Source of the DNA: Escherichia phage LLS
Length of the DNA: 42,883 bases
Direction: 5' to 3' (one strand)
Sequence record: PQ299149
The notes beneath the pieces are model-generated. The model did no database searches. It saw only the letters and a list, made by a program, of their open reading frames with translations, and was not told the origin of the DNA. Positions 31,731 through 32,156 of this stretch are shown in pieces (the stretch's first letter is position 1; each line of letters starts with the position of its first letter). The position numbers and the translations under genes were made by a program.

Positions 31731-32156
31731 GGTTTAACCCTCTGTTAGGCGGCTGCCACCGCCAGTGAAACTTCTCCATACACAACAGAGAAGGGCACCC
31801 GCGCGATTGTTATGGGTAGACAGGCCACTTCCCTCGCGCCCGGGTGGATTGGGTTATGAGCCCGTCGCCCGGTGATGCCCTTGTCTCTTGTGTAAAAAAG
31901 GTGCCCACCGATGCGATGGGCAAAGACTACACACAGCAATGATTTTGTTGTGGCGGTGGTGCCTCCACCTGCCGGACCGGCCAGAACCGGCGACGCTACA
32001 CCTCAAGAAACGTATTCATTTCAAAAGTTGAAATAAAAACTTGTTGGCCTCGTCACGTGCGCAGAGCCGCATTACCACAACTGGAAGCGCACTCTTTCGG
32101 TAACAAACCTGCCCCCGCAGTGAAAGAGAGAAGGAGTGCGCTTTCACGTTGTGCCC

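Follow-up and report, generated by a model that had tools for sequence, protein, structure and literature searches.

The operator of bacteriophage T4 gene 43, which encodes the DNA polymerase, is reportedly a short hairpin just 5′ of the Shine-Dalgarno (SD) sequence, as described by Tuerk, Gold and co-workers in 1990. In lambda, boxB is a hairpin with a 5-bp stem and an A-rich, GNRA-like pentaloop, accompanied a few nucleotides away by boxA (YGCUCUUUA) and recognized by the arginine-rich N protein, and in mycobacteriophage L5 the phage repressor has DNA sites, the stoperators, whose 13-bp sequence is fixed. The idea that boundary sequences are conserved in lambdoid phages is likewise in the literature, in the form in which Clark et al. 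(2001, J Mol Biol 311:657) is cited in PMC3233612. Here we describe a family of small RNA hairpins with a common GCAG loop in the genome of Escherichia phage LLS (PQ299149), the whole 42,883 bp of which is referred to as the window, and show how it compares with each of these systems.

An earlier note on this sequence reported two 16-bp GC-rich elements, and both are present as described (copies 1 and 2 in Table 1): they are identical at 14 of 16 positions, and each is separated by 17 nt from the ATG of the gene that follows, with an SD sequence inside the spacer. The two differing bases do lie in the loop, but at its positions 1-2 (TG versus GT), on the 5′ side rather than at the exact centre where they had been placed. 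The elements are also real copies of one element, but they had been treated as a pair, and the hairpins are no mere pair: they belong to a family that has four or more sense-strand copies in the window and is widespread in related phages. The sequence GGCGG-N6-CCGCC occurs exactly twice on the two strands of the window, against an expectation of 0.07 ± 0.26 from 100 dinucleotide shuffles, none of which reached two occurrences. Copies 3 and 4 were found by a scan for a 5-bp stem with an NNGCAG loop and then by a covariance model (CM) built from 29 instances, the E-values of which are rough. All four sense-strand copies are among the five best sense-strand CM matches in the window, the fifth being a terminator look-alike.

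Members of the family share a simple anatomy, in which a 5-bp stem with the loop N-K-G-C-A-G is followed after 1-9 nt by the SD sequence and then by the AUG. The SD sequence is usually UGGAGAA in the family; in the window it is (A/G)UGGAGAA at three copies and GAGGG at the sb37 copy. The stem of copy 3 has four Watson-Crick pairs and a C·C mismatch, or a bulged C if G30377 pairs, and this hairpin lies 21 nt upstream of the yfdR-like ATG at 30339, with the SD sequence GGAG at 30354-30351. Copy 4 begins 3 nt past the stop codon of the exonuclease open reading frame (ORF), with GGAG at 28734-28731; the xis start that follows is likely the ATG at 28724, and an in-frame ATG at 28736 has no SD sequence. 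The identical 17-nt spacing of copies 1 and 2 does not in itself reflect a constraint: among relatives, the hairpin and the ATG are separated by anything from about 14 to 25 nt. The predicted folding energies of copies 1 to 4 are -11.4, -11.9, -6.8 and -8.3 kcal/mol, and because the predicted folds leave the SD sequence largely unpaired, the hairpin is not a simple SD-sequestering switch. Directly upstream are single-stranded tracts rich in A/U or A/C, CAACCAAAAAUC at yfdR, UUUUAAUUA at xis and AAAUCAAAA at rha.

The conservation of these hairpins was examined in loci fetched by protein similarity to sb37 (L004-L083) or to Rha (L084-L163), and therefore without selection for the hairpin itself; in these the hairpin is kept upstream of the sb37 and Rha genes while its flanks vary. 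In a set collected purely by N-terminal peptide, spanning eight gene families, the KKGCAG loop is present in 119 of 122 distinct upstream regions, and the loop GUGCAG is found in every one of the 43 distinct regions upstream of yfdR orthologues. The stems are much more diverse, and the class of stem follows the family of the downstream gene, xCCGG at xis (ACCGG, GCCGG, CCCGG and CUCGG), GCGCN or CGCAG at yfdR (CGCAG/CUGCG, GCGCG/CGCGC, GCGCU/AGCGC and GUGCG/CGCAC, among others), and GGCGG at sb37 and rha, where AGCGG/CCGCU also occurs; the stem CGACC/GGUCG is seen at yfdP. At least 10 distinct perfect stems carry the same loop. In an ungapped, loop-anchored alignment of orthology-chosen sequences, 91.2% of stem cells are paired, compared to 49.5% after shuffling (none of 500 shuffles reached the observed value) and 26-42% when the partner strand is slid, and all five stem pairs show changes on both sides, in 53 cells. 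An earlier alignment, A1, gave 100% pairing but had been selected for pairing, and RNAalifold returned no structure on MAFFT-aligned yfdR leaders because the short stems are put out of register.

Within the loop, GCAG never varies, and the second position holds U or G. When GGCGG stems are excluded and perfect hairpins are counted, GCAG is the 3′ loop tetramer in 10 distinct stem/loop combinations before an SD sequence and start codon, compared to a mean of 0.4 over the 256 tetramers and three for the runner-up. The hairpin is followed by an SD sequence and AUG in 89 of 134 distinct contexts, and the exceptions are mostly orphan copies in leaders, SD-AUG spacers that are over-long for the pattern, or accidental matches in unrelated contigs of high GC content. 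Every copy is oriented as its gene, and stem variants with a single mismatch have G·U or U·G in eight instances and A·C or C·A in one; this orientation and the G·U bias together indicate that the sense strand, and so RNA, is involved. On this comparative evidence both the base pairing and the loop are under selection. The suggestion in the earlier note of a shared cis-element is thus borne out by the survey of orthologous genes in related phages: the motif is conserved, its stem changes compensate one another, its asymmetric loop does not vary, mismatches are biased towards G·U, and it acts in the sense of the gene downstream. Rfam 15 has no match to the four sites at the gathering threshold across the whole window, and none at E≤5 in 31000-37000; exact-sequence and concept searches, part of them with ill-chosen terms, did not find the motif in the searchable literature.

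The rha-type hairpin warrants a closer examination, as it overlaps coding sequence. In most other phages it is located within the last five codons of RusA (...EITISKYEP-AGAAA*), and in the closest relatives of the window it lies inside the last codons of a 494-residue C5-methyltransferase (...ANQK-AGAAA*). RusA genes without the AGAAA tail occur (L155, L168 and mEp390), so that the tail is simply the hairpin read through, and indel variants retain the hairpin but alter the peptide (AGVQPV*). An alignment of 49 distinct RusA 3′ ends, a set that comes partly from pattern-selected loci, shows the hairpin columns as an island of low entropy between variable flanks, with four-fold degenerate positions included. 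Because these degenerate positions are conserved, and because frame-shifted variants keep the hairpin and lose the peptide, the alignments indicate that conservation is at the nucleotide level and is not a product of coding. At least five different genes follow RusA and its hairpin (several Rha types, KilA-N, DUF968 and two others), and several of these have the common first codons ATGAATCAG. Rha is identical from the first base of the hairpin onward behind two unrelated genes, RusA in L111 and the C5-methyltransferase in the window type, and since the homology starts at the same base behind either gene, the hairpin is part of the leader of the downstream gene and marks a junction between modules. 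The hairpin-SD block is, as a boundary sequence would be, a short conserved sequence with differing modules at its flanks. The window itself contains only a remnant of the C5-cytosine methyltransferase gene (35944-36040, plus strand), in which the start (MREIIVDNYAGG...), overlapping the Dam stop codon, is joined in a different frame to the final ~20 codons (...LVEANLSELCANQKAGAAA*); because the 494-residue gene is intact in relatives, the window has an internal deletion of ~1.4 kb.

The distribution of the family among phages is broad. The SfV-like phage mEp460 is matched by the CM at each of the four positions, namely upstream of yfdP, of yfdR and of xis and at the end of RusA; ST64B, mEp390 and Eeyore have subsets of these. 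The same arrangement precedes xis in ST64B, mEp390, mEp460, L194 and L241, with the stems ACCGG, GCCGG and CCCGG. In Stx2a_1447, of which the pR region was checked, a copy at the RusA end leads KilA-DUF968-Q, and a BLAST search with the linker gives RusA-end matches in SfII, cdtI, mEp460 and many Stx2a and Stx2c phages. The cryptic prophage CPS-53 of Escherichia coli K-12 carries a slipped copy before yfdR and a decayed copy before yfdP. A scan of contigs with CCGGGTGCAGCCGG is uninformative on host range, as it is dominated by chance matches in high-GC genomes. In lambda, HK97 and HK022 the model finds nothing above background except in the oop-terminator region. The best matches there lie antisense to cII, at the end of the lambda oop RNA (L285 29636-29663 in HK97 and L410 38602-38629 in lambda, both on the minus strand); the HK97 look-alike, CUCGG-UGGCAG-CCGGG, runs into a U-tract and is a true terminator.

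The hairpins lie in the immunity and early region of a prophage that is lambdoid and of the ST64B/SfV-like kind (Table 1). Its nearest named relatives are the Escherichia phages Eeyore and Flotzy (~93%), followed by Citrobacter phiNP and Salmonella ST64B (76-80%). The four copies lead four runs of overlapping or tightly packed genes, sb37-DUF2303, yfdR-orf65-orf85, xis-int and rha-DUF968-Q, and the exonuclease gene is the only one that starts after a gap without a hairpin. The Rha/KilAC ORF begins in the ORF list at an upstream in-frame ATG (36007), but there is no SD sequence there.

Table 1. Coordinates of the hairpin copies, genes and leader elements in the window.
Feature	Position	Strand or direction	Remarks
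Hairpin copy 1	31748-31763	-	GGCGG-UGGCAG-CCGCC = GGCGGTGGCAGCCGCC; CM 26.3 bits
Copy 1 spacer, 17 nt	31747-31731	-	TAACAGAGGGTTAAACC; SD GAGGG 31742-31738; sb37/YfdP-like ATG 31730-31728
Hairpin copy 2	36022-36037	+	GGCGG-GUGCAG-CCGCC = GGCGGGTGCAGCCGCC; CM 30.5 bits
Copy 2 spacer, 17 nt	36038-36054	+	TGATATGGAGAAATAGC; SD GGAG 36044-36047; Rha/KilAC ATG 36055
Hairpin copy 3	30361-30376	-	CGCAG-GUGCAG-CUGCC; CM 18.7 bits, E 0.0035; absent from the training set
Hairpin copy 4	28740-28755	-	CUCGG-GUGCAG-CCGGG; CM 26.8 bits; precedes xis
int (integrase)	27382-28557	leftward	after xis
xis	28518-28724	-	excisionase, PHROG 2917
Exonuclease gene	28759-29331	-	stop codon 28761-28759
orf65 and orf85		leftward	two small ORFs downstream of the yfdR-like gene
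YfdR-like gene	29800-30339	-	5′-deoxynucleotidase
DUF2303/YfdQ-like gene	30475-31305	leftward	
sb37/YfdP-like gene	31359-31730	-	123 residues; PHROG 204, function unknown
Companion hairpin	31771-31793	-	CUUCUCUGU-UGUGU-AUGGAGAAG; minimum-free-energy and centroid structures; context of copy 1, not a family member
Terminator-like hairpin 2	31922-31893	-	terminator scan
Terminator-like hairpin 1	~32200-32160	-	read by eye
cI-like repressor gene	32359-32985	-	
cro	33085-33300	+	
CII-like gene			listed among the regulators of the early region
Replication gene	34213-35067	rightward	
Dam-type methyltransferase gene	35064-35951	rightward	
Rha/KilAC gene	36055-36747	+	Pfam Phage_pRha + ANT
DUF968/HNH gene	36744-37805	rightward	
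Q-like antiterminator gene	37806-38519	rightward	

The interpretation that we favor, and to which we would give an even chance of being correct, is that the hairpins are conserved RNA stem-loops at the 5′ edge of the initiation region that control the downstream cistron post-transcriptionally. What best fits the anatomy as read from the sequences is a translational operator or some other RNA signal within the initiation region; gene-leading copies lie 1-9 nt from the SD sequence and 14-25 nt from the AUG, as an operator hairpin would. On a polycistronic early mRNA, a hairpin would stand at the first cistron of each translationally coupled block, those of sb37-DUF2303, yfdR-orf65-orf85 and xis-int in the leftward pL operon and that of rha-DUF968-Q in the rightward pR operon. 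Each hairpin (5-6 bp, predicted at -7 to -12 kcal/mol) would fold 1-9 nt upstream of a strong SD sequence without including it, and the stem would need pairing alone. The comparisons establish the structure of the element, its strand, selection and position, and the size and distribution of the family. The full turnover of the stem against an invariant loop argues that the loop is recognized by something, and we infer that there is a loop-specific factor and that it acts on translation or stability. This trans-acting factor could be a protein or else a complementary RNA loop, of phage or host origin; it would contact the loop and, from the ribosome standby or platform position, set the level of translation initiation or else shield a 5′ end left by processing. 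Secondarily, the ~45-nt block of hairpin, SD sequence and first codons would serve as a conserved linker for the exchange of early modules between phages.

Several observations weigh against such control. The early region offers no candidate for the trans-acting factor, neither an N-like arginine-rich ORF nor an obvious RNA-binding protein, and the distance of 1-9 nt between hairpin and SD sequence is not a strict geometry. Orphan copies without an adjacent start codon are found in pL leaders (GGCGG-UGGCAG-CCGCC in the mEp390 type, and a second leader hairpin in the Eeyore type), and conversely the Rha genes of L138 and phiNP and the RusA genes of L155 and L168 lack the hairpin. The GGCGG..GCAGCCGCC pattern itself served to retrieve loci L164-L283, and our counts are of distinct sequences rather than independent evolutionary events. 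Forks that leave the origin also use the sense strand as their lagging-strand template, so that the strand bias and the G·T tolerance argue only incompletely against a role in single-stranded DNA. As to a complementary RNA loop, the sequence CUGCAC was sought in the pL leader and its RprA-like RNA, where the only candidate is a 6-mer with a wobble (CUGCGC), within chance expectation. A more ambitious and quite tentative proposal is that the GCAG-loop hairpins are the operators of a post-transcriptional regulon, in which the blocks would be co-ordinated by an RNA-binding factor specific for the loop, or by a kissing RNA. This regulon would cover the first pL genes, xis-int and the block ending in Q, and could take over the timing role of lambda N in those lambdoid phages for which no N-like gene was found here (the SfV, ST64B, mEp390 and CPS-53 types, and the Stx2a phage judging by its pR region).

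An alternative explanation is that the hairpin is a purely structural mRNA element with no specific factor, which might insulate the initiation region against sequence upstream, block 5′-end-dependent scanning by RNase E or stabilize a 5′ end processed by RNase E in the A-rich tract upstream, or provide a hairpin-dependent pause that helps to couple ribosome and RNA polymerase where each block begins. Stems that need only pair, an exposed SD sequence, the A/U- or A/C-rich single-stranded tracts just upstream of the yfdR, xis and rha copies, and the position of the hairpins at the head of blocks starting after an intercistronic gap are all consistent with this; but the constancy of GCAG while all five stem pairs have turned over is unexplained unless the loop needs a special fold, and the spacing to the SD sequence, and hence to any pause site, varies, and we regard a structural role of this sort as unlikely. 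We are equally doubtful that the block is primarily a boundary or linker at the level of DNA, a target for recombination that is either homologous or a single-strand process guided by the hairpin, with its conservation reflecting either recombination history or selection for evolvability. The homology breakpoints at the block edges, where Rha stands behind RusA in L111 and behind the C5-methyltransferase in the window type, are as this would predict, as is the succession of at least five different genes behind RusA and the hairpin, several beginning with ATGAATCAG; the orphan copies resemble deletion scars, and boundary sequences have been proposed for lambdoid phages, to the extent that the idea is represented in PMC3233612. 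Homologous recombination, however, requires identity and not a covarying stem with an invariant loop, and the stem classes have only ~6 + 7 nt in common, too short for homologous exchange. Neither the G·U bias nor the fixed gene-sense orientation and adjacency to the SD sequence is predicted, and from general knowledge the extrusion of a cruciform from a 5-bp arm is implausible. A linker role may well coexist with an RNA role as its consequence.

Near-identical hairpins in two divergent early operons recall nutL and nutR, raising the question as to whether these are boxB-like hairpins that an N-like protein recognizes while Nus factors occupy a boxA, giving antitermination in the pL and pR operons. 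Copy 1 is downstream of two terminator-like hairpins in the pL leader, and ~25 nt upstream of it is a boxA-like sequence (GGUGCUCUU in relatives, GGUGCCCUU in the window) with a GU-rich run after it. There is also a precedent in mEp021, which has three nut sites, one of them after a methyltransferase gene (PMC11893012). We nonetheless reject a lambda-type nut site and consider nut-like antitermination in general very improbable: no N-like arginine-rich ORF was found in the early region, the interval from cI to sb37 included, the loop is the hexaloop N-K-G-C-A-G and not an A-rich, GNRA-like pentaloop, and the copies, at least four, each sit beside an SD sequence rather than being promoter-proximal and upstream of terminators. 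The boxA-like run is present at the pL copy only, with none before the rha, yfdR or xis copies, and in relatives the rha copy is preceded by coding sequence; the run is, moreover, predicted to pair with AUGGAGAAG. It keeps the nut interpretation alive for copy 1 alone, with low probability. That the palindromes are non-functional, as a chance GC-rich pair or as an antisense intrinsic terminator at the rha site, is scarcely credible. A terminator scan does flag the reverse complement of copy 2, after which comes TTTTGATTT, and such GC-rich 14-mers are common by chance in high-GC genomes; but only 0.07 are expected in the window, conservation and covariation are strong, the A-run upstream of copy 2 is missing in most relatives (which have ACGAACC, CCTCT and others), and no antisense promoter was found.

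Other identities were considered and rejected. The earlier note had proposed an RNase III-type processing site or a protein-binding DNA palindrome as possible functions. RNase III substrates span roughly two helical turns and need a helix of ~20 bp, and the helix here is only 5-6 bp with no longer conserved helix around it; a DNA operator is not supported, as the arms vary (at least 10 stems) around a conserved, asymmetric and non-palindromic centre, with wobbles on the sense strand only (eight G·T versus one A·C). An intrinsic terminator does not fit, since no copy is followed by a U-tract in the sense of its gene and the antisense T-run at copy 2 is not conserved. This antisense look-alike (36021-36038, minus strand) comprises the reverse complement of copy 2 followed by UUUUGAUUUG, its A-run being specific to the window and its closest relatives. 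The RfaH ops element, GGCGGTAGnnTG on the non-template strand, is matched at 8 of 12 positions by copy 1 (GGCGGTGGCAGC), which lacks A7, T11 and G12, and the other copies lack GGCGGT. A sigma-54 promoter (TGGCAC-N5-TTGCA), repetitive extragenic palindromes (REP) or bacterial interspersed mosaic elements (BIME), Chi, an IHF site, a primase CTG site, and mimicry of the 16S 530 loop/5′ domain or of the tRNA-Cys anticodon arm were checked by eye, and each shows a likeness to one stem class only or has the wrong orientation or spacing.

Two further CM or pattern matches in the window are not counted as family members. The first (30437-30464, minus strand; CCCCG-GCGCAG-CGGGG, 23.5 bits) has the sequence AAAUCCCCG-GCGCAG-CGGGGAUUUAUU in the window; it is terminator-like and lies after the DUF2303 stop codon. 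Because relatives have other loops (GCGCCG, GCUA, GUAA and others), on a 9-bp stem, AAAUCCCCG/CGGGGAUUU, that is followed by AUU, its GCAG and its likeness to the stem of the E. coli type I-E CRISPR repeat are accidents of a single C-to-A change. The other (8424-8439, plus strand; GGCUG-GUGCAG-CAGCC) lies within the gene for the major tail protein (8061-8804), where neither an SD sequence nor a start codon is close by. It resembles copy 2, from which it differs by a double compensation, and is probably due to chance.

The pL leader around copy 1 is notable for its other elements. No convincing ORF is present in the ~540 nt between the pL-like promoter (32304-32276) and sb37, and the order is two terminator-like hairpins, an RprA-like RNA ending at the second terminator, a near-invariant block, a variable hairpin, the boxA-like run and copy 1. 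The two terminator-like hairpins thus lie between the pL-like promoter and the first pL gene in a window with no N-like gene. The RprA-like RNA (31893-32029, minus strand) is a full-length match to Rfam RF00034 at 40.8 bits (gathering score 70; E 0.0016 for a 651-nt stretch), in which a 23-nt run, AUUGCUGUGUGUAGUCUUUGCCC, equals the family consensus, is conserved in relatives and is followed by the terminator; it may be a prophage-borne mimic of RprA or a shared Hfq/terminator module. The near-invariant non-coding block, ACACAAGAGACAAGGGCAUCACCGGGCGACGGGCUCAUAACCCAAUCCACCCGGGCG (~31833-31893, minus strand), is directly downstream of the leader terminator and is kept across phages with differing flanks; it has no ORF and no Rfam match, and could be a cis-acting leader RNA. 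The variable leader hairpin is in many relatives a member of the family with a UUGCAG loop. The companion hairpin of copy 1 pairs the boxA-like pyrimidine run with the SD-like AUGGAGAAG, and its primary sequence is conserved in relatives. Upstream of the yfdR hairpin there is a further conserved small hairpin and tract, UCGCC-NNN(N)-GGCGAGGGAUUCGURCAACCAAAAAUC (~30380-30412, minus strand); this block also precedes a different gene, gp35, in mEp390 (L284 ~7105-7140), and its stem covaries, being CACC..GGUG in K-12.

If the hairpins are indeed a shared control signal, they represent a new RNA motif with strong covariation, without a match in Rfam and not found in the searchable literature, that links four key early modules in a large group of enterobacterial temperate phages, including those for excision-integration and the Q antiterminator. 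The phages with the motif include the serotype-converting phages of the SfV type, Salmonella ST64B, CPS-53 of K-12 and at least some Stx2-converting phages, in which the hairpin leads the KilA-DUF968-Q block upstream of the activator of the toxin. It would then provide an experimental handle on delayed-early timing in phages for which no N-like gene was found.

With regard to the described systems, the resemblance to the T4 gene 43 operator lies in a 5-bp GC-rich stem, a loop that bears the specificity, and a position a few nucleotides before the SD sequence and AUG of a phage early mRNA. In T4, however, there is just one such site, which is autoregulatory, has an 8-nt loop and is bound by a protein that is known, whereas here there are at least four sites at unrelated genes with a GCAG hexaloop; the analogy is one of architecture only, with no relation in sequence. 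As at the lambda nut sites, small, near-identical 5-bp hairpins occur in the leftward and rightward early operons with a boxA-like run at the pL copy, but no N-like protein was found, the copies (at least four) lie beside SD sequences, the loop is an NKGCAG hexaloop, and three of the four have no boxA. Like the L5 stoperators, the hairpins represent a short asymmetric motif that recurs many times in small intergenic gaps, in one orientation relative to transcription; here, unlike in the stoperators, sequence outside the loop is free and only pairing is conserved. Finally, like the lambdoid boundary sequences as they are presented in PMC3233612, these are short conserved sequences at junctions in the early ('metabolic') region, with which mosaic breakpoints coincide. 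The boundary-sequence model, as it is known through that source, is one of DNA homology with seven published sequences, whereas the element here is an RNA-type covarying stem-loop; because the hairpins coincide exactly with mosaic junctions, they provide a test case for whether conserved boundary sequences guide the exchange of lambdoid modules.

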